Origin: Vulcanimicrobiaceae bacterium
GTDB taxonomy: Bacteria; Vulcanimicrobiota; Vulcanimicrobiia; Vulcanimicrobiales; Vulcanimicrobiaceae
Length of the DNA: 64,000 bases
Direction: 5' to 3'
Assembly (NCBI GenBank): GCA_035938175.1
Contig: DASZHD010000046.1
Span: 9,294-73,293 of the forward strand
Position 1 is the first letter of the stretch, and the number at the start of each line of letters is the position of its first letter. The position numbers and the translations under genes were made by a program. This document shows, piece after piece, positions 1,737 to 63,838 of this stretch. Below the pieces are notes generated by a model. It worked only from the letters and a program-made list of their open reading frames with translations, ran no database searches and was not told the origin of the DNA.

Positions 1737-1846
1737 GCCCCTTCGATTCCTCCGGTGGTTCGATGCGCGAGCACGACGAGTTATGCCCTTCGATTCCTCA
1801 GGGTGCTTCGATACCTCAGCATGACAGGCGATTCCTCACCATGACA
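1737..1846 (-). repeat. 49-nt repeat family, 2-3 degenerate units in reverse orientation
   Basis: cccttcgattcctcagggtgcttcgatacctcagcatgac is the reverse complement of the unit seen at 13784, 20021 and 63595. The flanking copies are degenerate. Confidence 0.8.
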
Positions 1847-1854
1847 AGTGGAGG

Positions 1855-2634
1855 CTATTCGCCCGCTGGAATGATGTACGTCGGCGGCGGAACGACCGGC
1901 TCTCCTACTTCGAGCACGATCCCCTGATGCGCGCGTAGCGGAATTGCGCGCAGATCGCCGTCGTACGGCTGCCCGTTCACAAATGCGGTTACTTTGCCTT
2001 TGAACGGCCCTACTTGATCGCGGCTGAGCGGCTGTCCCCAGATGTCGAAGAACATGCCCACCGTGTACGGACCGCCGTTGGGTGCGTTGACGTCGCCGGC
2101 TTCAATGTGAATGATGCCGCTGGCATCATGCGTGTGCAGCCAGTACAAACAGCTGCCGTTCGGCGAGAGCGGCTGTAGCGCAAAGCCGATATACGGCGGA
2201 ATCTGCAAAGGCGAACCGTCGACCATGATCGCGAGGTGGCTGTGAACGTGCAGTTGGACCGCCTCGGTCGTGGCGCATGGAATGCCGTCGACGAGCTGTC
2301 CGTGTCCGCCGCTTGCGGTGTCGGGCAGAATGCCCTTTTGCGGATTCGGCGTCGGTAATCCGAAAATGGGTTTTCCGACGGGCTGGCCGTTCACGAGCGC
2401 GATCGGTTTGGTCGTCGGCTGCGGTCCCGGCGTCGGCGTGGAATAGTCGAACGCCAGCGCTTTCGCGCGAGTCTGATTCGAAATGAAATTGGATATGCCG
2501 AAGCCGGCGAGCACGAGCACGATCACGATGGCGAACCCGATGTAGATCGGCGTCATGGGATCGCGTTTGGCGGGCGGCGGCGTCGCGCCGCCGCGCGTGG
2601 TTCTGCGGCGCTCTGCGCGGCTTGGCTGGCTCAT
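1855..2634 (-). CDS. membrane-anchored exported protein, HTHD-motif family (paralog of 10047..11087)
   Basis: 259-aa ORF with an N-terminal TM anchor (IYIGFAIVIVLVLAGFGI). The C-terminal domain carries CLYWLHTHDASGIIHIE and FFDIWGQPL..QVGPFKGKVT, matching CFYELHTHDPSGAIHVE and FLALWGIPV..QFGPFNGPIT in the 10047 ORF. Confidence 0.65.
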   Translation of the reverse strand: MSQPSRAERRRTTRGGATPPPAKRDPMTPIYIGFAIVIVLVLAGFGISNFISNQTRAKALAFDYSTPTPGPQPTTKPIALVNGQPVGKPIFGLPTPNPQKGILPDTASGGHGQLVDGIPCATTEAVQLHVHSHLAIMVDGSPLQIPPYIGFALQPLSPNGSCLYWLHTHDASGIIHIEAGDVNAPNGGPYTVGMFFDIWGQPLSRDQVGPFKGKVTAFVNGQPYDGDLRAIPLRAHQGIVLEVGEPVVPPPTYIIPAGE

Positions 2635-6215: not shown

Positions 6216-6722
6216 TTAAGCGAAAGCCGGCGGAGGCCGGGAGAAGAGCCGAAGTGTGTGCGCGGTGGAACGCGAGGGCGCACACGTGTATGGAGCGCGA
6301 GAAGCCTGCCGTGGCGCAGGCGAAAAGACGCCTGTCAGAACTGCGACGATCGCGGCAAACGTTTGCGCGAATGCGAGCAACACGACGCGCACCAGCCAGG
6401 ACGCGAACGCGACCGCAACGGCCGCCGCTAAAAATGAAACGGCGTGAGACTGCTCGCACAGCTCGATGCCGGCAAACCATGCTGCCGCGCCGCCCGTCAT
6501 CGCGAGCAGATGGATCCGCGGCGATTTCCAGCGGCGAACCGCAGCAACGGCGGCCAAAAGCGTGGCGAAGAATGCGAACGACGTGCCGAGCGAGAGCGCG
6601 GCACCGTGCAAGGACCCGGCGAGCGTATGCTCGTTGCCGAACAACAGGACGTGCGCGAGCAGCGCTGCGGGCAATCCCAGCAACGCGGCGTAGCCGAACT
6701 TCCTGATGCTCGTCACTATCAC
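6216..6722 (-). CDS. polytopic membrane protein (hypothetical)
   Basis: 168-aa ORF with about 4 hydrophobic helices. Its start overlaps the stop of the upstream multicopper oxidase by 4 nt, which suggests an operon. Confidence 0.5.
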   Translation of the reverse strand: MIVTSIRKFGYAALLGLPAALLAHVLLFGNEHTLAGSLHGAALSLGTSFAFFATLLAAVAAVRRWKSPRIHLLAMTGGAAAWFAGIELCEQSHAVSFLAAAVAVAFASWLVRVVLLAFAQTFAAIVAVLTGVFSPAPRQASRAPYTCAPSRSTAHTLRLFSRPPPAFA

Positions 6723-8167
6723 GAGCGGTAAACGACCTCGGTTCGCATCCCGTCCATCATATGTATCTCGTTATGGCAATGCAACAGCCACCGTCCGGGC
6801 GGTGAATCCGCCGTAAAATGCCATGTTGCTGTCCCTCCATGCGCCCGCACCAGGGCCGTGTCCTTGGGGAGCGGCCTAAGCAGCGGTTTGCCGTCCACGC
6901 TCGTTAAACGAAAAACATGCCCGTGCAGATGCATCGGATGGTCCATATCCGTCGTGTTCTTGAAATGAATCGTCACGGCGTCGCCGCGTGTGACGAAAAT
7001 CTTCGGGGTGTGCGGATACGTTTTGCCGTTTATCGTCCACGCGTTGCTGCCGTAGGCGCCGCCCCCAAGTGTAAAGTTGTAGTCATGCTGAGGCGTCTTG
7101 TCATGCTGAGGCATCGAAGCACCCTGAGGCATCGAAGGGCCAACTCCCCCCGCCCCCTCGTACGTAAAGAACTCAACGCCTTCCAGGGTTTGCGGGCTCG
7201 CGGCGGGCGCCGCATTTTCGAAGCCCTCGGTATAAACGACGGCCGCCTGCTGATACGCGGTCGGTTCGCTGGAGAGACCTTGCAATAGCCAAGCACCGGG
7301 TTTTTGTACTTCGAACCACGCGTCGTACCGTTCGGCGACGCCTATACGCAACGCATCGACCGTCACGGGCGCTTCAAGACGGTTCCCGTCCGTGTGCGTT
7401 ACGGTCAGACGATGATCGGCCAGACGCACGTAACGCGTCTGCGTCGGGTTCGCATTGAGAACGCGCAAGCGCACGCGCTGTCCGACTTTCACGGGAAGTT
7501 TTTGCGTTGCCGGATACGACCGGCCGTTGATGCAATGCGCGACGTACGCAACTTCGTCGCCCATTTTATCGTTGGGCTCCATCTCGCGCATTTCCGGAGA
7601 ACCGATAGGATCCACCATCGGCGCGCCGCTTACGCCCATCATCGCCTGCTCGATCGTCGGCAAATTCGGCACGTCGTGAAAGACGAGCGCAAACTCCGCG
7701 TCGTAGTGCTCGTCGTTCGGATCTTCCACGACGATCAATCCGAAGAGCCCGCGCGGCAAGCCGCCGCCCACGTGATCGTGATACCAGCGCGTTCCGGCCG
7801 GCTGCGCGACGAAATCGTACAGAAACGAATCGCCGCTGGGCACCGGCGCCTGCGTAATATCTTCAACGCCGTCCATGCGGTTCGGAAGAATCATTCCGTG
7901 CCAGTGAACCGTAGCCGGTTTGCCGCTGGAGTTCACGAATTTCGCGCGCAACCGCTGCCCTTGCGCGACGCGAATGACCGGCCCCGGAATGCTGCCGTTG
8001 AACGCGAGGAGCGGATACTGCATGCCCGGCGCCGGCGAAAATGCAATCGGTGCTGCGGTTAGCGTGTAGTCCAGCGTGTCTTCGGCCAGCGCCCGCGCCG
8101 GCAGCCGCGGTACTGCGAGCGCGGCCATCACGCCCGCACTTCGCGCCAAGAAGACGCTGCGGCGCAT
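6719..8167 (-). CDS. Tat-exported multicopper oxidase
   Basis: All four copper-ligand motifs are present: HWHGM, WYHDHV, HPMHLHGH and HCHNEIHMMDGM. There is a twin-arginine leader (MRRSVFLARSAGVMAALAVP). I place the start at the internal ATG at 8167, where TAATG overlaps the upstream stop by 1 nt. Confidence 0.9.
   Translation of the reverse strand: MRRSVFLARSAGVMAALAVPRLPARALAEDTLDYTLTAAPIAFSPAPGMQYPLLAFNGSIPGPVIRVAQGQRLRAKFVNSSGKPATVHWHGMILPNRMDGVEDITQAPVPSGDSFLYDFVAQPAGTRWYHDHVGGGLPRGLFGLIVVEDPNDEHYDAEFALVFHDVPNLPTIEQAMMGVSGAPMVDPIGSPEMREMEPNDKMGDEVAYVAHCINGRSYPATQKLPVKVGQRVRLRVLNANPTQTRYVRLADHRLTVTHTDGNRLEAPVTVDALRIGVAERYDAWFEVQKPGAWLLQGLSSEPTAYQQAAVVYTEGFENAAPAASPQTLEGVEFFTYEGAGGVGPSMPQGASMPQHDKTPQHDYNFTLGGGAYGSNAWTINGKTYPHTPKIFVTRGDAVTIHFKNTTDMDHPMHLHGHVFRLTSVDGKPLLRPLPKDTALVRAHGGTATWHFTADSPPGRWLLHCHNEIHMMDGMRTEVVYRS
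7082..7142 (+). repeat. 49-nt repeat family copy inside the multicopper oxidase CDS
   Basis: gtcatgctgaggcgtcttgtcatgctgaggcatcgaagcaccctgaggcatcgaagggcc. It is read through in-frame on the minus strand as GPSMPQGASMPQHDKTPQHD. Confidence 0.8.
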
Positions 8168-9984
8168 TATTGCCCGACGTTCAGCGGCACAGTCATGGTT
8201 TGGCCGTCGTACTGAACGCGCACGGTCCACGGACCGCCCATCGAAAACACGACGCGTCCCGTGAACAGATGCGGATCGGAAGCGGATTGCGTGAGCGTCA
8301 CTTCGCGAGTCTGCATCGTGCTCGCACCCATTTGCATGATCGGAAGAACGCTGACGCTCTTCGGCGGAGTTCCTGGGAACCGGATCGATATCGTCGCCAT
8401 GTCGGTCGGCACGGCGGGATCGAACGTTACGACGGGCTTCGTGCCCGCCGAGCCGCCGTCCAAATTCGAGAGATACGTGACGATGCTCGAGACTTGATCG
8501 GTGGTGAAGCCGAAGTTCGGCATCGGCGGCTTAGGATTCACGATTGCATTTGCAATTTGCTCCGCGGTGAGCTTGTGCTCGATTCCGAAGAGCGCCGGAG
8601 CAACGCCGCCGCCGTGCAAACCCGCGCCGTGACAGCCTTCGCATCCGTTTGCCTGCACCAGCTTCGCACCCGCGTCAGCCGAAGCGGCGCCGGTTACGGC
8701 CTGCGGACTCGCCGACGGAACGGGCGCGGCACTTGGATCCGGGGGCGGTGCATTTGCTGCGAGCGTTTGGGCAGACGCCACGTGCAGGTTGGAAAGAAAG
8801 CGGCGGCCGTAGTCATACGGGCCGCCGTACGCCATTTGAAACGCGATCTGCGGACGCTGTCCCGGATATGTTGCCAGTTCGCCGATCAGCGCCAGGTTCG
8901 GTAAGACGTTATGCGCGACGTCCGCGACGACTTGCCGCGTCAGTGTGTCGCTCGAGGCAACGTCGTAGCGGAGTAACAGGTGGTTGCGCCATCCCAAATC
9001 GCGTTCCGCCTCGAAAAAGAATCCGTTCAACGGCACGTCGTACGCGCCGATATCCGGATTCGCGTCTTGCCCGTGATAGTACATCGATTGATAGTGCCAT
9101 GCGTCGGTTTGGTAAGCGAAATAGACGCCTTCGCGCGTGAAGGGCTGGGTGCCCAAGAACGCGCCGCTTGCCGGGTCGTTCAGCGGCGACCATCCGCGCA
9201 TGCCCACGAGCCCGACGCTCCAAGGAATGGACATGCCCCCGTACGACACGTTGAGGTCGATCGCGCGCGGATTGTTGGCCTGGTTGTAATCCAGTGCGTC
9301 GCCCGTGGAGCCGCTGCCCGTTAACCACGACACATTGTACATGAACTCGTTGGACATGCCGTTGAAGGCCGCGCCCCACCGCGCGTCATTGGGATTGAAC
9401 TGATTCTGGCCCGTGGTCTGAGCCGCGAGCAAATACGGGCTAATCGTCCACGCGTGGGCCGGCATAAACGGAAACGGGGTGTGAAATTTGCCGACCTGGA
9501 TCGAATTCGTGCCGTGCAGCAGGCCGTTCCAGGATATCCAGACCTGTTCGGTCTGCCCGATGACGCCGGAATCGATGACGTGCTGTTCGGCGTACCACGT
9601 AAAGTTGCGTCCCAAGAATCCGCCGCCCAGAAGCGAGAGGTCGGAAACCATCGTGCTTCCCGGATGATCTTTGTTTGCGAGGATCGATTGAATGTACAAG
9701 CGCGCTGAAATCGGGAGCGCGCGATCTTGCAGATGCCGGTTCAGGATTTGAAAATTCGACATCATGACCATCATGCCGTAGCGCGTCATTCCCGGAAACG
9801 TCGTGTGACAGGTTTCGCACGAAATGCCTTGCCCGTTGGCAAACACCGGAATAGCATCGGCGCGCTGCGCTGGAATGAATGCGAGAAGTGCGGCGGCGCC
9901 GAGTGCGCGCAGAACCGCAGCGTACGATGGGTGCATGGAGTGCCTCCGCGAGAATTCAGGCGCGTTCGCGTCGTAGGTTTCCAT
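8167..9984 (-). CDS. multidomain c-type cytochrome: N-terminal heme site, beta-barrel-like region, class-I cytochrome c domain, YtkA/FixH-like domain
   Basis: 605 aa. Signal peptide (ALLAFIPAQRADA) with CETCH directly after it. A region of about 380 aa rich in alternating aromatic/Gly strands follows, then a Pro/Ala linker. A second heme site CEGCHG has a downstream PPMP Met ligand region. The C-terminal Ig-like domain has a Met-rich segment (LPIMQMGASTM...GGPWTVRVQYDG). Confidence 0.75.
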   Translation of the reverse strand: METYDANAPEFSRRHSMHPSYAAVLRALGAAALLAFIPAQRADAIPVFANGQGISCETCHTTFPGMTRYGMMVMMSNFQILNRHLQDRALPISARLYIQSILANKDHPGSTMVSDLSLLGGGFLGRNFTWYAEQHVIDSGVIGQTEQVWISWNGLLHGTNSIQVGKFHTPFPFMPAHAWTISPYLLAAQTTGQNQFNPNDARWGAAFNGMSNEFMYNVSWLTGSGSTGDALDYNQANNPRAIDLNVSYGGMSIPWSVGLVGMRGWSPLNDPASGAFLGTQPFTREGVYFAYQTDAWHYQSMYYHGQDANPDIGAYDVPLNGFFFEAERDLGWRNHLLLRYDVASSDTLTRQVVADVAHNVLPNLALIGELATYPGQRPQIAFQMAYGGPYDYGRRFLSNLHVASAQTLAANAPPPDPSAAPVPSASPQAVTGAASADAGAKLVQANGCEGCHGAGLHGGGVAPALFGIEHKLTAEQIANAIVNPKPPMPNFGFTTDQVSSIVTYLSNLDGGSAGTKPVVTFDPAVPTDMATISIRFPGTPPKSVSVLPIMQMGASTMQTREVTLTQSASDPHLFTGRVVFSMGGPWTVRVQYDGQTMTVPLNVGQ

Positions 9985-12961: not shown

Positions 12962-13765
12962 GTGATCGTCGATTTTCACTCCCACACCTGTGAGAGCGAC
13001 GGCACGCTGACACCCGCGGCGCTGTGCGAGTTCATGCGCGAGCGCGGGGTGCGCGTGTTCTCGATTACCGATCACGACACACTCGGCGCGTACGGCACGT
13101 TCGACGTGCCGGCTTCAATGCGCGTGGTGACCGGCATTGAGATAAACACGACGCACGCCGACAGCGAGGTGCACATCCTCGGCTACCGCTTGCCGACGTC
13201 GCACGCGGCGCTGCAAGAAGTGCTCGCTGGCAACCGCGCGGCGCGCCGTTCGCGCGTCGGAAAAATCGTCGCGCAGCTGCGCGAAGCGGGGCACGACATC
13301 TCGATGGCGCACGTGCAAGCCGAAGCCAACGAACGCGCTTCGCTCGGGCGGCCGCACGTCGGAAAGGCGCTAATCCGCCGCGGCATCGCGCCGGACATCG
13401 AAACGGCGTTCCGGAAATTTTTGCGCCGCGGAACGCCCGGATACGTTCCGTCGACGCACATGCGCCCGCACGACGCCATCGCGATCATCAAAGAGGCCGG
13501 CGGCGTACCCGTGCTCGCGCATCCCGGACGCCTGCGAGATTACGACATCATCGACGAGCTCGCGCAAGCCGGCTTGCGCGGATTAGAAGTCTTTTATCCC
13601 ACGCACGAGCCGATGCAAGTTCAGCATTTTCGCGATCGCGCGCACCGCCTCGGCTTGGTGATGACCGCCGGCTCGGATTTTCACGACATCCGCTATCACA
13701 AACGCGGCGTCGGCGTCGAGATCGACGAGGCGGACATTCGCCCTTTTCTGGATCTTGTGGCGTAG
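12962..13765 (+). CDS. PHP-domain phosphoesterase (TrpH/YciV-like)
   Basis: VDFHSHTCESDG at the N-terminus, ITDHDT, AHPGR and GSDFH motifs typical of PHP metal-dependent phosphatases. Confidence 0.85.
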   Translation: MIVDFHSHTCESDGTLTPAALCEFMRERGVRVFSITDHDTLGAYGTFDVPASMRVVTGIEINTTHADSEVHILGYRLPTSHAALQEVLAGNRAARRSRVGKIVAQLREAGHDISMAHVQAEANERASLGRPHVGKALIRRGIAPDIETAFRKFLRRGTPGYVPSTHMRPHDAIAIIKEAGGVPVLAHPGRLRDYDIIDELAQAGLRGLEVFYPTHEPMQVQHFRDRAHRLGLVMTAGSDFHDIRYHKRGVGVEIDEADIRPFLDLVA

Positions 13766-13768
13766 CTT

Positions 13769-13938
13769 GTCATGCTGCCGCGTGTCATGCTGAGGTATCG
13801 AAGCACTCTGAGGAATCGAAGGGCCCCGCATTGTCATGCTGAGGTATCGAAGCACCCTGAGGAATCGAAGGGCCCCGCATTGTCATGCTGAGGCATCGAA
13901 GCACCCTGAGGCAGCGAAGGGCCCCTCTCCCCTCGCAA
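13769..13938 (+). repeat. 49-nt repeat family, tandem array (one partial and three full units)
   Basis: Units start at 13769 (partial), 13784, 13833 and 13882, giving an exact 49-nt period. The consensus is gtcatgctgaggNatcgaagcaccctgaggaatcgaagggccccgcatt. Confidence 0.9.
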
Positions 13939-14087
13939 CCGCGCCCGACGTTTCGCATCCGTGCGAAACGCTGGCCTACTGAATTGAGCGCTTCACCCCA
14001 CATCCGTGTTTAGGCGCTCAATTCAGATGCTTGCGAGGGGAGAGGGGCCCTTCGCTGCCTCAGGGTGCTTCGATGCCTCAGCATGAC
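13882..14087. repeat. perfect 57-bp inverted repeat enclosing a 92-bp double-hairpin core (MITE-like or structured-RNA element)
   Basis: 13882..13938 is the exact reverse complement of 14031..14087. The core holds a 9-bp stem (13949-57 with 13962-70) and a 13-bp stem (13979-91 with 14014-26). Confidence 0.85.
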
Positions 14088-14155
14088 GAGCGATGCTGCA
14101 GCATGACAAGGGGCGGCGAGCCGAGAAGCAAGCGTCCCACAAGGAGACCCAAAGC

Positions 14156-20020: not shown

Positions 20021-20105
20021 GTCATCCCGAGGTATCAGCGTGTCATCCCGAGGTATCCGCTTGTCATCCTGAGGTATCGAAGGACCCTGAGGTATCGAAG
20101 GGACC
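20021..20105 (+). repeat. 49-nt repeat family, divergent copies
   Basis: gtcatcccgaggtatc is repeated three times and ends in ctgaggtatcgaaggaccctgaggtatcgaagggacc, directly after the metK stop. Confidence 0.8.
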
Positions 20106-49738: not shown

Positions 49739-50137
49739 TTACGCCGCTTTCTTTTTGCGTCCGCCTTTTTTGCGGCCGCCCTTTTTGCGTCCGGCCTTCT
49801 TGCGTCCGCCTGCGGATGCTGCTGATTTCTTGCGTCCGCCCTTTTTGCGTCCGGCTTTCTTACGACCGCCCGCGGCTTTCTTGCGTCCGCCCTTCTTGCG
49901 TCCGCCCGTCGATTTCTTGCGTCCGCCTTTCTTGCGTCCGCCGGTCGATTTCTTACGTCCGCCTTTGCGTGCACCGGTCGATTTCTTGCGTCCGCCTTTG
50001 CGTGCGCCCGTCGATTTCTTGCGGCCGCCCGCGGCTTTACGGCCCGCGGATTTCTTACGGCCGCCTTTGCGGCGCCCGCCACGACGTCCCGATGATTCTT
50101 CCATCGTTCCGCCGTTTTGCATCATGTCGGAATCCAT
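49739..50137 (-). CDS. highly basic GGRKK-repeat protein (histone H1 / Hc1 / AlgP-like)
   Basis: 132 aa with a short acidic N-terminus (MDSDMMQNGGTMEESS) followed by about 20 repeats of GGRKK(S/A)(T/A)G. Lys+Arg exceed 40% of residues. The underlying DNA is tandemly repetitive. Confidence 0.7.
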   Translation of the reverse strand: MDSDMMQNGGTMEESSGRRGGRRKGGRKKSAGRKAAGGRKKSTGARKGGRKKSTGARKGGRKKSTGGRKKGGRKKSTGGRKKGGRKKAAGGRKKAGRKKGGRKKSAASAGGRKKAGRKKGGRKKGGRKKKAA

Positions 50138-52502: not shown

Positions 52503-53936
52503 TTGTCAAAGCGTCTAACCGTTATCGGCGCGGGCCTTGCCGGAAGCGAGGCCGCTTGGCAAGCGGCGCTATGCGGCGTTGCCGTCGATCTCTACGAAAT
52601 GCGCCCGCAGAAAAGCGGTCCCGCCCATCACACGGGAAATTTTGCCGAGCTGGTCTGCAGTAATTCATTTCGCGGCGCCGCGCTCGAGAATGCCGTCGGT
52701 TTGTTGAAAGCGGAACTGGAACTTCTCGATTCGCTCGTGATGGCGTCGGCGCGCGATGCCGCGGTGCCGGCCGGCGGCGCCTTGGCGGTGGATCGCGACC
52801 GCTTTTCGCAAGCCGTACAAGCACGAATCGAATCGCAGCCGCTGATCGCGGTGCATCGCGAAGAAGTGCTGACGATTCCGCTCGACCGTCCCGCGATCGT
52901 TGCGTGCGGGCCGCTGCCGAGTACGGAGTTTTTGGGGGAGATTGATGGGGTGTTGGGGAGGGTGGACCCTTCGATGCCTCAGGGTGGTTCGATTCCTCAC
53001 CATGACAAATCGAGGCTGCACTACTACGATGCCGCCTCGCCGATCGTCGCCGCCGATTCGATCGACGAACGTCCCATGTATCGCAAATCGCGATACGAAA
53101 AAGGCGACGGCGACGACTACCTCAATATTCCCCTAACGAAAGAGCAGTATCTTCAACTGCTCGCGGATTTGCGCACGCTGCCGCGGCACGAAACCAAAGC
53201 GTTCGAAGATGCAAAATATTTTGAAGGCTGTCTTCCGATCGAAGAGATGGCCGATCGCGGCGACGACGTGCTGCGCTTCGGACCCATGAAGCCCGTCGGA
53301 CTGCGCGATCCGCGCACCGGAAAAACGCCGTACGCGGTCGTGCAGTTGCGCAAAGAAAACGTCGCGGGCACGGCGTTCAATTTGGTCGGTTTTCAAACTC
53401 GTCTCACCTGGCCGTCGCAAAAGGAAGCGTTCCAAAAACTTCCCGGGTTGGAACGCGCGGAATGGCTGCGCTTGGGCGTTATGCACCGCAACACGTTCAT
53501 CGACTCGCCGCACCTGTTGGGGCCGGACCTGCGTTTGCGCGGAACGCCGTCGCTGTATTTTGCCGGACAGATCACCGGAGCCGAAGGGTACGTCGAGGCC
53601 GCCGCTTGCGGCGCCATGACCGGCATCCACGCCGCGCGCCAAATCCTGGAACTGCCCGCGGTGGAGTTTCCGGATACGAGCGCGTTCGGCGCGATCGTCG
53701 CGCACCTGCAGAACACCCAGACGCCGGACTTTCAGCCCGCAAATGTCACATGGGCGCCGTTTCCGCCGCTTGATCCGCAGACCGTTGCGAGCCTCGGAAA
53801 GCGCCCAGACAAAAAGGTGCGGCGGCGGATGCTTGCGGAACGCTCGCTGGCCGCAATGAACTTATTTGCCCGCGCGTTGAGGAGACATGATGATCGCAAC
53901 CCCTCCCACCACCTACTCGCCGCCCCGGCTCGTTAG
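52503..53936 (+). CDS. trmFO: methylenetetrahydrofolate--tRNA-(uracil-5)-methyltransferase
   Basis: LTVIGAGLAGSEAAWQ (FAD site), ELVCSNSFR, MHRNTFI, YFAGQITGAEGYVE. It contains an in-frame repeat-derived insertion (see findings). Confidence 0.9.
   Translation: MSKRLTVIGAGLAGSEAAWQAALCGVAVDLYEMRPQKSGPAHHTGNFAELVCSNSFRGAALENAVGLLKAELELLDSLVMASARDAAVPAGGALAVDRDRFSQAVQARIESQPLIAVHREEVLTIPLDRPAIVACGPLPSTEFLGEIDGVLGRVDPSMPQGGSIPHHDKSRLHYYDAASPIVAADSIDERPMYRKSRYEKGDGDDYLNIPLTKEQYLQLLADLRTLPRHETKAFEDAKYFEGCLPIEEMADRGDDVLRFGPMKPVGLRDPRTGKTPYAVVQLRKENVAGTAFNLVGFQTRLTWPSQKEAFQKLPGLERAEWLRLGVMHRNTFIDSPHLLGPDLRLRGTPSLYFAGQITGAEGYVEAAACGAMTGIHAARQILELPAVEFPDTSAFGAIVAHLQNTQTPDFQPANVTWAPFPPLDPQTVASLGKRPDKKVRRRMLAERSLAAMNLFARALRRHDDRNPSHHLLAAPAR
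52967..53006 (-). repeat. 49-nt repeat family copy inside trmFO
   Basis: cccttcgatgcctcagggtggttcgattcctcaccatgac (reverse orientation), read through in-frame as PSMPQGGSIPHHD. Confidence 0.8.
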
Positions 53937-55200
53937 CCGCGCCGCAAACGTCGTCGAACCGAAGGGAGCCGGCCACGTGCTGGTTCAGGTTCAGGTGAAC
54001 GCGGACGGTTCGTTCAAAGTCTTGCGCGTCATCCGTTCCAGCAATCCGGCCGACAATGCAGCCGCCCTGGACATCGCTTCGCATTCCAAGTACGCACCGG
54101 CGTTGAAAAACGGCGCGCCCGTCCGCTCGCTCTTCGATTTCGACGTCGTGTTCGGTCAAGAAGCGGTCAGCGGAGCGGCAGCGCAGATCGCCGCAATGCT
54201 GCACAAGAACGATTTCAACGGCGCCAAAGCGGCGGCTGAATCGGCGCTGACGCAAAATTCGAACAACCAGCTCGTGCAGGCGCAGCTCGGCGTTGCCGAC
54301 GCATTCTTGCACGACATCAGCGGAGCGGTTGCGGCATTCGACAAAGCCGGAACGATTCCGGAGATGTATCAAAACGTTGCGATGCAAGCGTATTCGCTCA
54401 ACGCCACGTCCCTTGCCGGCACGCAGCCGCAAGTCGCGCTCGCGCAAGCGCAAAGGGCCGTTTCGCTGAACGGTGACTACGGCGCCTACTATGCGCTCGG
54501 CGTTGCGCAGCAGGCTAACAAAAACAGCACGGCCGCATTGAGCGCGCTGGAGAAGGCCGAAAGCATGGCGCAAGGCGCGCATCCGCCCGCCGATGCCTCG
54601 AGTATGGCCAACATTTATCAAGCCATGCTTACCGCGGCGCAGGCGTCCGGCGACAAAGCGACCGTCGATCGCGTTTCTGCTCAAATCAACAAGTTGGATC
54701 CCGCGGCCGGCGGCAAGACGCTTGCTTACAATCTCGATTCGCAGGCAGCGGCAAAAGAACAGCAGCGCGATTTCTCCGCAGCCGTGGCTCTCTACGAAAA
54801 AGCCGCTCAAGCCTCTCCGCAATGGGCCGGTCCGCCCGAATACACGAAGGCCGCGATCGTCCTCGCAACCGAATCGCTGCCGAACTATCCCGCGGCGCGG
54901 ATCGAGGCCGAAAAAGCGATCGCCATAAATCCGAACTACGCGCCCGCGTATTATGTCAGTGCGGTGGCTATGGGGCAGGACGCGCTCGGCAACGGAAACA
55001 TGGACGAACTGCAGCGCGCCACGGACAATGCCTACAAGGCTGCCGATCTCGCTCAAAAAGTGGGAGACACGCAACTTGCTACGTCGGCACGATACTTTGC
55101 CAAGAACCATCAGCTCGATCAAAACCTGCAACAGTGGTCCACCGGCCTATCCACCAACTCGCGATACATGTCGAACAACGGGTACCAGCCCAACACGTAA
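53887..55200 (+). CDS. TonB-C-terminal-like domain + TPR-like repeat protein, no recognisable signal or anchor
   Basis: The N-terminal ~90 aa (GAGHVLVQVQVNADGSFKVLRVIRSSNPADNAAALDIASHSKYAPALKNGAPV) match the TonB_C pattern. The remainder is Ala-rich helical repeats. GAGGAG RBS before the ATG. Confidence 0.7.
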   Translation: MMIATPPTTYSPPRLVSRAANVVEPKGAGHVLVQVQVNADGSFKVLRVIRSSNPADNAAALDIASHSKYAPALKNGAPVRSLFDFDVVFGQEAVSGAAAQIAAMLHKNDFNGAKAAAESALTQNSNNQLVQAQLGVADAFLHDISGAVAAFDKAGTIPEMYQNVAMQAYSLNATSLAGTQPQVALAQAQRAVSLNGDYGAYYALGVAQQANKNSTAALSALEKAESMAQGAHPPADASSMANIYQAMLTAAQASGDKATVDRVSAQINKLDPAAGGKTLAYNLDSQAAAKEQQRDFSAAVALYEKAAQASPQWAGPPEYTKAAIVLATESLPNYPAARIEAEKAIAINPNYAPAYYVSAVAMGQDALGNGNMDELQRATDNAYKAADLAQKVGDTQLATSARYFAKNHQLDQNLQQWSTGLSTNSRYMSNNGYQPNT

Positions 55201-55225: not shown

Positions 55226-56536
55226 ATGATGCTTGCCGCGCCTCCCCCGAGTTTCATCGCCCCCAAAGTTCTTAGCCGCGGTCCGAGCGTCGTCGAACCT
55301 CACGGCGCCGGACGCGTACTGGTTCAAGTTCAAGTCAACGCCGATGGTTCGTTTAAAGTGTTGCGTGTCGAACGCTCGACGAACAACGGCGACAATGCAG
55401 CGGCAATGGACGTCGCGGCGCATTCGACGTATTCACCCGGTATTCGCAACGGAAAACCGGTGGCGTCGATCCTGGATTTTCAAATCGTGTTCGGCGATCA
55501 AGCCGTTAGCGGGTCCGCCTCGAAAATCGACACGCTCTTGCACGATAACGACTTCGCAGCAGCCAAGGCTGCCGCGGAGGCCGCTCTGGCGCAGAGCCCC
55601 GAAAACCATTTGGTGCAAGCGCAACTCGGCGTAGCCGATGCATTTATGCACGACATTGCCGGTGCAGTGGCCGCATTCGATCGCGCCGGCTCGATACCGG
55701 ATGCATACACGGACGTTGCAATGCAGGCGTATGCAATGCATTCGCTTTCCATCGCCGGCACGCAGCCGCGGACAGCATACGTAGAAGCGCAGCACGCGAT
55801 GTCGCTGGGCGGCGATTATCGCGCATATTACGCGCTCGGCGTTGCGGAACAAGCCAACAAAGACAATTCAAGCGCCCTGGGCGATTTACGCAAAGCGCAA
55901 ACGCTGGCACAGGGCGCCAATCCGCCGCCCGATCAGCAAACGCTGGCGGGCATCGACCAGGCGTTGCTCTCCGCCGCGCAAACCGCCGGCGACAAAGCCA
56001 CGGCGGACCGCGTCAGCGCGGACATCGCCAAGATGGATCCGGGCGGGGCGGGGCGTACGGCCGCGTACAACTTCGACGTCCAGGGTTCGCAGGCGGCCTC
56101 GCGTCACGATTACACCGGCGCGGTCGCGTTCTACGAAAAAGGGGCAGCCGCCGCACCCGACTGGGCGGGACCGGTAGAGTATACGAAGGCGGCGATCATC
56201 TTGGCGACCGAACCGCTTCCGAACTATCAGGCGGCGCGCCTCGAAGCGGAAAAAGCAATAAACGCCAACGACCAGTATGCGCTTGCTTACTATGTCGATG
56301 CTGTCGCAATGGGGCAGGACGCACTCGGCAGCGGGAATATGGACGAGCTGTCGCGCGCCACGGACAGCGCGTACAAAGCGTCGACGCTGGCCCAAAAGGC
56401 CGGGGATGCAAAGCTCGCCGCGTCGGCCGCATACTTCGCGAAGTACCATCAGGTCGACATGAACCTGCAGGTCTGGTCCACCGGGCTTTCCATTAACCCG
56501 CGGTACTCAAATCAGATGCACACCCCCAACCAATAG
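55226..56536 (+). CDS. TonB-C-terminal-like domain + TPR-like repeat protein (tandem paralog)
   Basis: Collinear with the 53887 ORF along its whole length and of equal length (436 vs 437 aa). Example: GAGRVLVQVQVNADGSFKVLRVERSTNNGDNAAAMDVAAHSTYSPGIRNGKPV. Confidence 0.7.
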   Translation: MMLAAPPPSFIAPKVLSRGPSVVEPHGAGRVLVQVQVNADGSFKVLRVERSTNNGDNAAAMDVAAHSTYSPGIRNGKPVASILDFQIVFGDQAVSGSASKIDTLLHDNDFAAAKAAAEAALAQSPENHLVQAQLGVADAFMHDIAGAVAAFDRAGSIPDAYTDVAMQAYAMHSLSIAGTQPRTAYVEAQHAMSLGGDYRAYYALGVAEQANKDNSSALGDLRKAQTLAQGANPPPDQQTLAGIDQALLSAAQTAGDKATADRVSADIAKMDPGGAGRTAAYNFDVQGSQAASRHDYTGAVAFYEKGAAAAPDWAGPVEYTKAAIILATEPLPNYQAARLEAEKAINANDQYALAYYVDAVAMGQDALGSGNMDELSRATDSAYKASTLAQKAGDAKLAASAAYFAKYHQVDMNLQVWSTGLSINPRYSNQMHTPNQ

Positions 56537-61624: not shown

Positions 61625-62152
61625 ATGAGAATTCGCTCAACCACGATTCTGGCGGTGCGCCGGGACGGAAAGCTCGCCGTAGCAGGCGACGGGCAAGTTA
61701 CCTTCGATAAAACGGTCATGAAGCACGGTGCGCGCAAAGTGCGGCGCATCGCGGGCGGTAAAGTCATTGCCGGCTTTGCGGGATCGGCAGCGGACGGCAT
61801 TACCTTGCTCGAAAAATTCGAAGGCAAATACAACGAGTACAAAGACATCATGCGCGCGTCGGTCGAGCTCGCGAAAGAGTGGCGTCAGGACCGCGCCCTG
61901 CGCCGTCTCGAGGCGCTGCTGATCGTCGGAAATGCGGATCATTTGCTGGTACTCAGCGGAAACGGCGACGTAATCGAACCGGACGAGGGCGTCGCTGCAA
62001 TCGGCAGCGGCGGACCGTACGCGCAGGCGGCAGCAGCCGCACTGGTTCGAAACACCGCCATGCCGGCCGAAGAGATAGCGCGCAAGGCGTTGGAGATCGC
62101 CTCGGAAATCTGCATTTACACGAACGACAGTATCATCGTGGAGAGCCTCTAG
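61625..62152 (+). CDS. hslV: ATP-dependent protease subunit HslV
   Basis: [22 protein letters not shown] (N-terminal Thr nucleophile after processing), [15 protein letters not shown]. Confidence 0.95.
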
Positions 62153-62169
62153 TGGCAGGCGGGAACGAC

Positions 62170-63591
62170 ATGATTCAGCTCACGCCGCGCGCCATCGTTG
62201 CCGAGCTCGATAAGTACATCGTCGGCCAGGCAAACGCAAAACGTGCCGTAGCCATCGCCATGCGCAACCGGTATCGCCGCGAAAATGTGCGCGAAGACTT
62301 GCGGGCCGAGATCATTCCGAAGAACATTTTGATGATCGGGCCTACCGGCGTTGGCAAAACCGAGATCGCGCGCCGCTTGGCCGCGCTCTCCGGCGCCCCG
62401 TTCGTGAAAGTCGAGGCTACGAAATATACCGAGGTCGGCTACGTTGGCCGCGACGTCGAGTCGATGGTTCGCGACTTGGTCGAACACGCGGTGCGCATGG
62501 TCACCGACGAACGCCGTGAAGAAGTGAAAGATCTCGCGGAGAAAATGGCAGTGGATCGTATCATCGATCTGCTTCATCCCGAGACGCGTCCGCCCGCGCC
62601 TCCGGGACAGCAGAATCCGTTTGCGGCGACGCTGGGATCGATCTTCGGCGGTCAATACGCGCAACAGCAACAGCAGCAGGCGCCGCCGCCACCGCCACAG
62701 AGTCCCGACACGGCTCGCGTGCGCGATCAAGCGCGGGCAGACGTCGAGCGCGGATTCTACGACGTGCGCCTGGTCGAAATCGAGACCGAAGAAGCGCCGA
62801 ACGTTCCGATCGGCGTTATCGGCGGCGGGTTCGATCAGGGCGGCGGCGTTGGAGACATCGGTGAAATGCTCGGCGGGATCTTGCCGAAGAAGCACATTAA
62901 AAAGCGGGTGACGGTGCAAGAAGCCCGCCGAATTTTCGCGCAGGAAGAAGCCAACAAACTGATCGACATGGATGCGGTCAAGCGCGAAGCGTTGCGGCGC
63001 GCGGGCGAAAACGGCATCATCTTCATCGACGAGATCGACAAAGTCGCGGGAAGAGAAGGCGGCCGCGGCCCCGACGTCTCGCGCGAAGGCGTGCAGCGCG
63101 ATATCCTGCCGATTGTCGAAGGCAGCACGGTCAACACCAAATACGGCACGATCAAAACCGATCATATCTTGTTCATCGCGGCCGGCGCATTTCACATCAG
63201 CAAACCGTCGGACCTGATTCCCGAACTGCAGGGCCGCTTCCCGATACGCGTGGAGCTCGATTCGCTGACGGCAGAAGACTTCAAAACGATTCTTACACAG
63301 CCGAAGAACGCGCTAACCGAGCAGTATAAAGCGCTGCTTGCCACCGAAAACGTGACGCTGGACTTTCAGCCGGACGGCATCGAGCAGCTCGCGCAATTCG
63401 CGATGCAAGTCAACGAGCAGAGCGAGAACATCGGCGCGCGACGGCTGCATACGGTGCTCGAGCGGCTTCTGGACGAGGTGAGCTTCGGAGCGCCCGAGCA
63501 AGGGGGAACTGTGGTCATCGACGCCGCGTACGTCAAGCAGAAGCTGCAAGACGTGGTCACGAACGCGGACTTGAGCAGTTACATTTTATAA
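62170..63591 (+). CDS. hslU: ATP-dependent protease ATPase subunit HslU
   Basis: [27 protein letters not shown], Walker [50 protein letters not shown] use the ATG at 62170; the ORF-track start lies inside hslV. Confidence 0.95.
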
Positions 63592-63594
63592 TCT

Positions 63595-63830
63595 TGTCAT
63601 GCTGAGGAATCGAAGCACCCTGAGGAATCGAAGGGCCACGCATTGTCATGCTGAGGAATCGAAGCACCCTGAGGAATCGAAGGGTAACGTATTGTCATGC
63701 TGAGGCATCGAAGCACCCTGAGGAATCGAAGAGTCACGCCGTTGTCATGCTGAGGCATCGAAGCACCCTGAGGAATCGAAGGGTCACGCGTCGTCATGGT
63801 GAGGTATCGAACCACGCCGAGGCATCGAGG
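63595..63830 (+). repeat. 49-nt repeat family, tandem array of five units
   Basis: Units start at 63595, 63644, 63693, 63744 and 63793 (period 49-51 nt). The last unit is degenerate. The array begins 4 nt after the hslU stop. Confidence 0.9.
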
Positions 63831-63838
63831 CGATTTGG

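Follow-up and report, generated by a model that had tools for sequence, protein, structure and literature searches.

An in-frame copy of a dispersed repeat occupies the hypervariable loop of a multicopper oxidase from Eremiobacterota

The gene for a multicopper oxidase (MCO) in a 64-kb stretch of bacterial DNA, referred to here as the window, contains in frame a 60-nt segment that is a genuine member of the dispersed repeat family of the same genome. It is most probably a passenger that the enzyme tolerates, copied from a mobile or recombinogenic repeat and lying antisense in a loop of the oxidase. Because related bacteria carry other versions of the repeat in the same loop, this is a new example of the "selfish DNA inside proteins" that is known from Rickettsia. 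The Rickettsia palindromic elements (RPEs; Ogata et al. 2000, 2002, as summarised in PMC10969869 and PMC3184786) are dispersed non-coding repeats that are also found in-frame inside unrelated housekeeping genes; the copies preserve the open reading frame and occupy positions compatible with the protein fold, and between roughly a quarter and a half of the loci are intragenic. In-frame selfish DNA in working genes has hitherto been regarded as mostly a Rickettsia curiosity, apart from a few other cases, and the same phenomenon is now seen in an uncultured phylum of soil bacteria, where the repeat is far shorter and non-palindromic.

Results

The host gene and the repeat copy within it

The features of the oxidase gene are as follows.

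6719-8167, minus strand: multicopper oxidase CDS, 482 amino acids plus stop (from the ORF, Pfam and orthologue synteny)
7895-7906, minus strand: copper motif 1, HWHG, residues 88-91
7772-7780, minus strand: copper motif 2, HDH, residues 130-132
7145-7171, minus strand: conserved block FFTYEGAGG, N-terminal of the variable loop (from orthologue alignments)
7100-7141, plus strand: core unit of the dispersed repeat, 42 nt, with its GTCATG head on the plus strand; the antisense reading is GPSMPQGASMPQHD
7082-7099, plus strand: "leader" module, head-only, 18 nt, GTCATGCTGAGGCGTCTT, which the gene reads as KTPQHD
7058-7081, minus strand: conserved block YNFTLGGG, C-terminal of the variable loop (from orthologue alignments and the model)
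6917-6940, minus strand: copper motif 3, HPMHLHGH, residues 410-417
6746-6781, minus strand: copper motif 4, HCHNEIHMMDGM, residues 463-474

The MCO matches the Pfam domains Cu-oxidase_3 (1.1e-38), Cu-oxidase (3.1e-23) and Cu-oxidase_2 (2.1e-31), all above their cut-offs, and its three cupredoxin domains are present both by Pfam and in the structure model. At the N-terminus, MRRSVFLARSAGVMAALAVPRLPARALA resembles a twin-arginine signal, and the ORF's first codon overlaps with the stop codon of the cytochrome c gene upstream. More than 100 orthologues with 64-77% identity share the conserved gene order of cytochrome c, MCO, a small protein, a TonB-dependent receptor and an epimerase. All four copper-motif patterns (HxHG, HxH, HxxHxH and HCHxxxHxxxxM) are present, and the ligand histidines and cysteine show at least 90% conservation, up to invariance, across 117 orthologues, which together with the 482-aa ORF bears out an earlier observation that the reading frame and the four copper-binding motifs are intact. 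An AlphaFold model of the protein has a mean pLDDT of 92.2, with the T. thermophilus laccase (6w2k, 2xu9; E = 6e-37, TM 0.67-0.73) as the best Foldseek matches. The protein is probably made and active.

Read on the minus strand, the repeat-derived segment (7082-7141; 60 nt, 20 codons) encodes GPSMPQGASMPQHDKTPQHD, residues 343-362 of the ORF that runs from the ATG at 8167 to the stop at 6719. The reverse complement is GGC CCT TCG ATG CCT CAG GGT GCT TCG ATG CCT, followed by CAG CAT GAC AAG ACG CCT CAG CAT GAC. On the plus strand, the stretch 7100-7141 agrees with the family consensus GTCATGCTGAGGnATCGAAGCACCCTGAGGnATCGAAGGGCC in all 42 positions; the copy is 96% identical to that at 63592-63638 and 96% complementary to that at 14046-14090. 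Its leader-plus-core architecture recurs in intergenic copies, with leaders of 15, 20 and 21 nt, and for the in-CDS copies of orthologues the leader period is 18 or 21 nt. The initial annotation had described an in-frame insertion of about 1.3 repeat units at 7082-7142. The repeat unit is indeed there in a continuous ORF, and 1.3 units is an accurate description of one 18-nt head-only module plus the 42-nt core; the start is also correct, and only the end was placed one base too far, the true end being 7141. The insert is a hydrophilic 20-residue peptide with two Met, two His and two Asp, and the tryptic peptides predicted across it from the sequence include TPQHDYNFTLGGGAYGSNAWTINGK and another ending in ...GASMPQHDK.

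The loop that holds the copy

In the alignment of 117 orthologues the repeat segment falls between the FFTYExAGG and YxFTLGGG blocks, and this interval is the only hypervariable, indel-rich part of the MCO alignment. The YNFTLGGG block opens a beta-strand of domain 3 (E360-369 in the model). Residues 341-359 of the model, to which the segment maps, are coil with pLDDT falling to 73-77, and the suggestion that the insertion lies in a surface loop is thus supported both by the model and by the alignment. By hhalign (99.7% probability) the loop is anchored between LEGL...QLSM and NKINGQAF of CueO, that is, at the position of the CueO methionine-rich segment, for which PDB entries 6im7 and 6im8 are listed (the segment or engineered grafts). 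In CueO this segment caps the T1/sCu site and aids Cu(I) recruitment, and it withstands deletion and peptide grafting (PMC6497955, PMC11494321). The repeat-bearing loop may be the counterpart of this cap over the T1 copper, and an effect of the insert on substrate access is conceivable because the two match in position; we nevertheless assume that the insert is strictly neutral.

The repeat family in the window

The family comprises 13 full units at 7 loci of the 64-kb window, mostly as 49-nt tandem arrays just 3' of stop codons, at distances of 3-21 nt. A 15-mer from the MCO copy has 21 matches with at most 3 mismatches, where 1.5 would be expected and none of 100 shuffles gave more than 5. 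Besides the MCO copy, the following elements were delimited.

1784-1855, minus strand: intergenic copy, leader plus unit, 9 nt past the stop of the ORF at 1855-2634 (minus strand)
13769-13925, plus strand: intergenic array, leader plus 3 units with a period of 49 nt (TRF: 2.9 copies, 95% matches)
13878-14092, unstranded: MITE-like composite, two perfect 57-nt inverted arms (100% complementary) around 92 nt
20021-20104, plus strand: intergenic copy, two 21-nt leaders and one unit of a related subfamily
52962-53012, minus strand (head): second in-frame copy, in the TrmFO/Gid CDS (52503-53936, plus strand), 3 mismatches to the consensus
63596-63834, plus strand: intergenic array, 5 units with a period of 49-50 nt

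Each unit is made up of two half-repeats in direct orientation, CTGAGGnATCGAAG, with (T)GTCATG as its head. The array at 13769 begins 3 nt past the stop of a PHP-domain gene (12962-13765), the copy at 20021 starts 6 nt past the S-adenosylmethionine synthetase stop codon, and the array at 63596 starts 4 nt past the stop of an AAA+ ATPase gene (61879-63591). At the counterpart of 1784-1855 a syntenic metagenome contig, L093, has 3 full units. On another contig, L097, a ClpP-like ORF terminates at the TGA of the repeat element itself.

Each arm of the composite is one repeat unit plus CCTCTCCCCTCGCAA, and the MCO copy corresponds to one arm-type unit. The 92-nt centre forms two internal hairpins, the whole element folds as DNA at -113 kcal/mol (z = -19.9), and its central module recurs in L093. 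The hairpin signal is limited to this inverted doublet. We considered whether the unit itself is a REP- or RPE-like hairpin and rejected this: on both strands, shuffled sequences fold as well as the MCO copy, one unit or a three-unit array do (z of +0.3, +1.2, +0.5 and -0.6 for the unit and the MCO copy; RNA folds up to +2.4).

Rfam at the gathering threshold returned one tRNA and no repeat family; matches by E-value (generic long-hairpin miRNA models, and Acido-1 with 20.7 bits against a 50-bit cut-off) were taken as chance. No match was obtained with the concatenated repeat peptide as a protein-search query or with the repeat array in a plasmid database. The window-type subfamily is rare, since the metagenome scan yielded the exact unit in 8 contigs only. 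No target-site duplication was evident at the MCO copy or at the composite, and no transposase or RAYT (Y1_Tnp) gene was found among the annotated genes of the fetched loci or in the part of the window's ORFs that was covered. Since neither was identified, the case for mobility draws on the distribution of the copies and on array differences such as that between L093 and 1784-1855, which suggest that the repeat moves.

A second in-frame copy in TrmFO

The copy in the TrmFO/Gid gene reads VDPSMPQGGSIPHHDKS, the same peptide frame as is used in the MCO, and makes this the second intragenic locus among the seven of the window. Repeat-type peptides are found at the same site in 27 of 120 TrmFO orthologues, with slightly shifted insertion codons, and about 30 of the 120 are without an insert there, as is the solved T. 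thermophilus TrmFO (3G5Q), which has no repeat segment. In the TrmFO model the repeat segment is coil, with pLDDT below 50 at residues 161-177.

The MCO copy as a derived state

A neighbour-joining tree of 117 MCO orthologues, built with the loop masked, places the window sequence with P0002, P0003, P0004 and P0012 (75-77% identity). The antisense window-type copy is absent from all four, and the outgroup MCOs L002 and L003, at whose loci no repeat was found, have unrelated loops of 17-20 aa. The orthologue alignment thus identifies the segment as an insertion, as had been proposed, and a homologous segment at repeat-free loci, which would have spoken against one, was not found. Since the nearest orthologues are without the copy and the loops at repeat-free loci are unrelated, the window copy is, on this comparison, the derived state.

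The loop measures 12-16 aa in most orthologues and 23 aa in the window, a net gain of only 7-11 aa, though 20 residues are repeat-derived. A deletion of the old loop or an overwriting of an earlier copy is therefore needed, and the older loop was largely replaced or overwritten by the copy, not simply extended. To compare baseline loops with the family, loop DNA was aligned by Smith-Waterman to five family consensus sequences, with other segments of the same CDS as the control. The loops of L088 and L083 scored 6-7.5, with control maxima of 8.5-11 and a score of 42 for the window loop. The Rubrimentiphilum-type loop GSVMPAQGAKH bears a slight resemblance to PSMPQGAS, but the idea that every orthologue loop is a decayed repeat copy found no support: L083, L088, L090, L001 and L006 all scored 6-7.5, no better than the CDS controls. 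A cluster look-up for strain-level variants with and without the insert returned the same sequences only. A profile scan of genome contigs for the MCO yielded mostly distant MCOs, with two Eremiobacterota genomes among the matches listed.

Repeated colonisation of the same loop

In-loop repeat copies analogous to that of the window were found in seven independent assemblies. At the DNA level, the MCO loop of L081 holds the repeat peptide CCCTTCGACAGGCTCAGGATGAC in two copies (ALRQAQDDNALRKAQDH) and that of L084 a window-type repeat (PLQGAQGASIPQHD). The repeat is read in a different frame in L082 and L085 (HFDRLSVT, HFDKLSVTNRLSVT) and lies in the opposite orientation in L086 and L089 (VMVSPSN, SHPEPVEGP). 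These variants, scattered over the tree, imply that related repeats entered the same MCO loop independently at least four times in other Eremiobacterota. In both the MCO and the TrmFO families, repeat-type peptides occur almost only at these loop columns. The generic family motif was absent from 75 non-Eremiobacterota MCO loci (~1.4 Mb), and among the sequences searched the repeat was found only in those of Eremiobacterota type.

Discussion

Proposed origin of the insert

We propose that a recent 60-nt copy of the dispersed repeat, an 18-nt leader with a 42-nt core, entered the MCO gene antisense and landed in the one hypervariable loop, with which cupredoxin domain 3 begins; by position this loop corresponds to the deletable and graft-tolerant methionine-rich segment of CueO. 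The repeat would be a non-autonomous mobile or recombinogenic element, because it occurs as single copies after stop codons, as 49-nt arrays and as the inverted arms of a ~215-nt hairpin element; copying was presumably by transposition or recombination. The copy would have survived because its length is divisible by three, its frame is stop-free (one of the four of the unit) and the loop is structurally permissive. The peptide itself is probably neutral.

Alternative explanations

It is hardly credible that the segment is not an insertion but resembles the repeat by chance, is native to the loop or stems from an assembly error that fused repeat-containing reads. The contig does come from a metagenome assembly, in which repeats may yield chimeras, but such an origin would have to account for a 42/42 consensus match with a typical leader module, for a length of exactly 20 codons flanked on either side by uninterrupted MCO sequence, for a TrmFO copy that is identical in a second public record (a 76-kb contig) and for comparable in-loop copies in the seven independent assemblies. 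We also regard it as very unlikely that the Met/His/Asp peptide SMPQGASMPQHDKTPQHD was recruited as an adaptive loop for copper binding or substrate gating over T1. Its alignment with the CueO methionine-rich segment and its two Met, two His and two Asp speak in favour of such recruitment; the same peptide frame is, however, used in TrmFO, a cytoplasmic flavoenzyme without copper chemistry, and the orthologues hold LRQAQDD, FDKLSVT, VMVSPSN, HPEPVEG or short Met-poor loops in its place. Two Met in 20 residues is far below the CueO segment, and there is no sign of coding-driven divergence because the insert DNA is identical to the non-coding consensus. The initial annotation had left the choice between a tolerated and a selected insertion. 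Tolerance agrees with the intact ORF and the permissive loop; no evidence of selection for the peptide was found, and selection is unsupported because TrmFO shares the frame and the orthologue MCO loops carry different peptides. With other variants of the family in the orthologue loops, a passenger rather than an adaptation is the best reading of these sequences.

How the copy came to lie in this loop is a separate matter. Turnover by recombination or gene conversion, in which a dispersed copy overwrote an older resident repeat, is compatible with the passenger origin proposed here and is a possibility, though a doubtful one. It would explain why 20 repeat-derived residues gave a net gain of 7-11 aa, and recent conversion predicts a copy identical to the consensus; the site is occupied in the sister P0003/L089 by a sense copy that belongs to another subfamily, and in the sister lineages L081 and L084 by further subfamilies, there in the same frame. 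Simple conversion cannot, however, yield a window copy opposite in orientation to that of P0003, and the baseline loops of L083, L088, L090, L001 and L006, which have no detectable residual similarity to the family, give no sign of an older resident copy. Site-specific targeting, in which the insertion machinery recognises local DNA (G-rich glycine codons by the tail, or CCTTC microhomology), we consider unlikely. The tail end does adjoin G-runs (GGGGCGGGGGGA, GGGGTGTTGGGGAGG) in the window MCO, L081, L084 and the window TrmFO, these runs resemble the CCTCTCCCC module 3' of the unit in the composite, the native empty TrmFO site contains CGC CTT CAT, which is similar to the element end CCTTCGA, and repeat-type peptides are nearly confined to the two loop sites. 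Yet the G-run is absent from the junctions of L100 and L101 (TrmFO) and of L082 and L085 (MCO), insertion points in the TrmFO loop lie about two codons apart between lineages, and both orientations are seen. Moreover, the loops are the sole indel-tolerant regions of both proteins, and the recurrence pattern is therefore predicted without targeting; it probably reflects selective filtering through few permissive sites. A broader version, which we hold to be similarly improbable, is that a phylum-wide, non-palindromic Eremiobacterota repeat superfamily (generic core CTTCGA-N3-5-CTCAG-NN-TGAC) enters specific enzyme loops repeatedly and by preference, through sequence-directed insertion or recombination and not by selective filtering alone, as a natural form of loop diversification. 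The loops named in that reading are the MCO domain-3 cap loop and the TrmFO loop and C-terminal linker, and if it were true, length and sequence polymorphism would arise at places like a copper oxidase's substrate-access cap.

Relation to known repeats and implications

The passenger copy in the MCO resembles the RPEs in that a dispersed repeat lies in-frame in functional protein genes, here MCO and TrmFO (two of seven loci). RPEs are ~105-150 bp and palindromic (PMC10969869, PMC3184786), whereas the unit described here is 42-49 nt, with a copy of up to 60 nt, and is non-palindromic, with two direct half-repeats and no stable hairpin (z = +0.3 to +2.4). The sequences are unrelated, the host phylum is Eremiobacterota and not that of Rickettsia, and here one loop was colonised independently in several lineages. 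BRE of Bordetella, RUP, BOX and SPRITE of pneumococcus and intragenic ERIC are likewise short intergenic repeats that sometimes lie within CDSs or extend genes at the 3' end; they differ in sequence, size and host and are mostly stem-loop or TIR-bearing, and no description of recurrent use of one loop across orthologues was found for them in the literature consulted (review PMC3184786). REP/REPIN elements, which are associated with RAYT transposases (PMC3733652), are also short, abundant extragenic repeats near gene 3' ends that form clusters and inverted doublets, and here a perfect inverted doublet was found at 13882-14087 and a further inverted pair in L091. Unlike REP, in which it spans 20-40 nt, the window unit is not an imperfect palindrome, and it has no GTAG/CGTC tag.

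The CueO segment occupies the same topological position as the insert, after the first strand of domain 3 and before the xxINGxxF/Y strand, and foreign-peptide insertion, replacement or deletion there keeps activity (PMC6497955, PMC11494321). It is, however, a 45-residue Met-rich helix-loop, whereas the loop described here, which originated from non-coding repeat DNA, is 23 residues long and has 2 Met; the window loop is not a long Met-rich insert of the CueO type, and the orthologue loops are Met-poor. A permissive oxidase loop agrees with the protein-engineering results on CueO. The loops of two unrelated enzymes took varied repeats in both orientations and several frames, which amounts to a natural replication experiment, and this independent acceptance marks the MCO and TrmFO loops as natural permissive sites. 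The system can be used to study how new loop sequence enters proteins, and targeting versus selection in that process. For annotation, peptides such as PSMPQG..., LRQAQDD, FDKLSVT and VMVSPSN inside genuine Eremiobacterota genes are to be expected and are not errors.

The multicopper oxidase gene

The multicopper oxidase (MCO) open reading frame lies on the minus strand, from an ATG at 8167 to 6719 (482 aa), and matches the Pfam domains Cu-oxidase_3 (1.1e-38), Cu-oxidase (3.1e-23) and Cu-oxidase_2 (2.1e-31). The reverse complement of 7082-7141 is translated within it as GPSMPQGASMPQHDKTPQHD, residues 343-362, which bears out the initial annotation of an in-frame repeat copy within an intact oxidase. 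The four copper-binding motifs are intact, as had been claimed; all were located, and their ligand residues are invariant or near-invariant in 117 orthologues.

Copper-binding motifs of the MCO (minus strand)
7895-7906, HWHG
7772-7780, HDH
6917-6940, HPMHLHGH
6746-6781, HCHNEIHMMDGM

The N-terminus (MRRSVFL...ARALA) looks like a predicted twin-arginine signal. The start codon overlaps the stop codon of a 605-aa cytochrome c gene (8167-8170), and because this one-base overlap is also present in orthologous loci, it suggests possible translational coupling of the cytochrome c and MCO pair, which stands beside a TonB-dependent receptor. SCO1/SenC genes occur near the MCO in orthologous loci.

The repeat family and its habitat

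Tandem Repeats Finder and a repeat finder identified a dispersed family with a 49-nt period in the window.

Repeat copies in the window
13783-13925, array of 2.9 copies, 49-nt period
63594-63828, array of 4.8 copies, 49-nt period
1784-1855, single or partial copy
7078-7142, single or partial copy
14046-14117, single or partial copy
20021-20105, single or partial copy
52955-53027, single or partial copy

Thirteen units match the consensus GTCATGCTGAGGnATCGAAGCACCCTGAGGnATCGAAGGGCC in a fuzzy search of the window, the unit at 7100-7141 with 0 mismatches, and a 15-mer taken from the MCO segment matches at 21 places where 1.5 would be expected. Elements are built of at least one head-only "leader" module (GTCATGCTGAGG plus 3-9 nt) followed by a full unit, a pattern that the MCO copy shares: its leader of 18 nt and core of 42 nt make up exactly 20 codons. 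The unit consists of two direct half-repeats, is non-palindromic, and is open in 4 of its 6 reading frames; it gives no hairpin signal, folding no better than shuffled sequence on either strand, and no Rfam family corresponds to it.

In the window and a few metagenome contigs with exact units, arrays typically follow a co-oriented gene and begin 3-21 nt past its stop codon. About 10 of some 24 intergenic arrays do so (for example 13769, 20021, 63596 and 1855 in the window and loci L096, L098 and L081), which suggests that the repeat lives or functions in 3' UTRs. In metagenome contig L097 a ClpP-like ORF terminates at the TGA of the repeat element itself. Contig L093 (Ga0070735_10080780) is syntenic with 1784-1880, with identical flank, and holds three full units and a composite centre against a single unit with its leader in the window; array content thus differs from one close relative to another.

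This centre is the central module of a perfect 215-nt hairpin at 13878-14092, in which 57-nt inverted arms, each one repeat unit plus CCTCTCCCCTCGCAA, enclose two internal hairpins. The composite looks MITE- or REPIN-like and could be the form in which the repeat moves. No transposase was identified for the repeat in the window and compared loci, nor any target-site duplication at its copies.

Orthologues and structure of the MCO loop

The organism is placed in Eremiobacterota by its best MCO homologues (64-77% identity), which bear the names Candidatus Baltobacteraceae, Vulcanimicrobiaceae or Rubrimentiphilum. Conserved synteny (cytochrome c, MCO, small protein, TonB-dependent receptor, epimerase) indicates that the compared MCOs are true orthologues. 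Their alignment puts the segment after the conserved block FFTYExAGG and before the likewise conserved YxFTLGGG, within the one part of the protein that is hypervariable and rich in indels, a loop of 12-16 residues in most orthologues versus 23 in the window MCO. In a neighbour-joining tree with the loop masked, the window MCO clusters with P0002, P0003, P0004 and P0012, all of which lack the antisense window-type copy. A homologous segment was sought in loci without the repeat and was not found; MCOs of Proteobacteria-labelled MAGs have unrelated loops of 17-20 residues. Because of these sister and repeat-free loops, the copy is, on the alignments, derived in the window's lineage, and it occupies and lengthens a pre-existing loop that it did not create. 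The proposal that the segment is an insertion thus holds for the repeat copy, which sister MCOs lack, and not for the loop, which was already there and was only extended.

The AlphaFold model of the MCO (pLDDT 92.2, pTM 0.91) shows the segment as a low-confidence loop in an otherwise confident structure: residues 341-359 are coil, with block-mean pLDDT of 73-77 versus 86-98 for almost every other block past the signal peptide, and the final repeat-encoded residues enter strand E360-369. Among solved structures, laccases of bacteria and fungi come closest in fold, Thermus thermophilus laccase first. In a profile comparison with the E. coli oxidase CueO (probability 99.7%), the loop is bracketed by a stretch ending in LEGLTVRKLQLSM and NKINGQAF, opposite the methionine-rich segment of CueO, with low alignment confidence inside the loop, an unalignable region. 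That segment caps the T1/substrate copper site, and its deletion, replacement or grafting with foreign peptides keeps activity (PMC6497955, PMC11494321), so that the natural insertion falls at a position that is highly compliant by experiment. By homology with CueO, the MCO loop is also placed near the substrate entrance.

Repeated colonisation of the loop

Peptides typical of the repeat superfamily, confirmed in DNA, are found in the MCO loops of orthologues.

Repeat copies in the MCO loops of compared loci
L081, GCCCTTCGACAGGCTCAGGATGACAAT then GCCCTTCGAAAGGCTCAGGATCAC, read as ALRQAQDDNALRKAQDH
L084, window-type copy, PLQGAQGASIPQHD
L082 and L085, CACTTCGACA(G/A)GCTCAGTGTGAC, other frame, HFDRLSVT, HFDKLSVTNRLSVT
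L086, GTCATGGTGAGCCCGTCGAAC, opposite orientation, VMVSPSN
L089 (sister of the window), GTCATCCTGAGCCTGTCGAAGGAC, opposite orientation, yet another frame, SHPEPVEGP

Local alignment scores against the family consensus sequences are 22-42 for repeat-bearing loops, no more than 11 for segments elsewhere in those genes and 6-7.5 for five baseline loops. Repeat-bearing loops are dispersed across the tree, and because two orientations and several frames are represented, the sequences imply at least four independent events. Counts of the generic motif are 11 for the window, 7 for L081 and 1 each for L082 and L001, and 75 MCO loci from other phyla have none.

A second in-frame copy lies in the TrmFO/Gid gene (52503-53936, plus strand; GIDA 4.8e-88), where GRVDPSMPQGGSIPHHDKSRLHYYDA at 52962-53012 is a repeat-unit copy in the peptide frame of the MCO, VDPSMPQGGSIPHHDKS. 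The site is empty (IDGLV-GKRLHYYDA) in about 30 of 120 orthologues and in the solved T. thermophilus TrmFO. Repeat-type peptides (LRQAQDDT/N/K, SFDSAQDD, SLSKDPE, CHSERSE and others) occupy it in 27 of the 120; in a few more orthologues they lie in the C-terminal linker, and the rest of the protein is free of them. DNA of L099, where the site is empty, and of L100 and L101, where it is filled, shows the copies of other lineages offset by two codons from that of the window and with 21-nt, frame-preserving leader modules. The insert is modelled as coil, with pLDDT below 50 at residues 161-177. The linker is a second variable region of TrmFO: at L099 1899-1917 (orthologue P0126) a sense copy, GTCACGCTGAGCCGGTCGAAGCGC, is read in frame as DVTLSRSKR, and similar peptides occur in P0208, P0229 and P0231.

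Origin and retention of the MCO copy

The best-supported reading is that the MCO segment was copied recently from a mobile or recombinogenic repeat and is tolerated as a passenger, which would have been kept since its length is a multiple of three, the frame used is free of stops and the loop is permissive. The small net gain in length and the different resident copies of sister lineages suggest turnover at the loop, by insertion and deletion or by overwriting through recombination. The position of the loop leaves room for an adaptive, copper-binding peptide, but the same peptide is present in TrmFO and the loops of orthologues hold quite different ones, which makes such a role unlikely; of the earlier alternatives "tolerated, or selected", we therefore retain the former. 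Recurrence of repeat copies at the same loops may reflect targeting of insertion or selective filtering; G-rich glycine codons flank several copy junctions, though not all.

For the Rickettsia palindromic elements (RPEs) and a handful of others, in-frame insertion into functional genes is established (PMC10969869, PMC3184786). The Eremiobacterota repeat works in the same way, but it is non-palindromic, much shorter, unrelated in sequence and from another phylum, and falls outside those families. We found no literature on repeats in Eremiobacterota. What it adds to the known cases is the independent, repeated colonisation of the same loops.

Other features of the window

A 132-aa ORF at 49739-50137 (minus strand) consists almost entirely of GGRKK(S/A)(T/A)G repeats, its DNA being tandemly repeated with a period of 15, 36 or 51 nt, and its predicted product is an extremely basic Gly/Arg/Lys-rich protein. 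Neighbouring ORFs of about 436 aa at 53887-55200 and 55226-56536 share 73-74% DNA identity along runs 150-230 nt long (families D5 and D7), and look like a tandem gene duplication.
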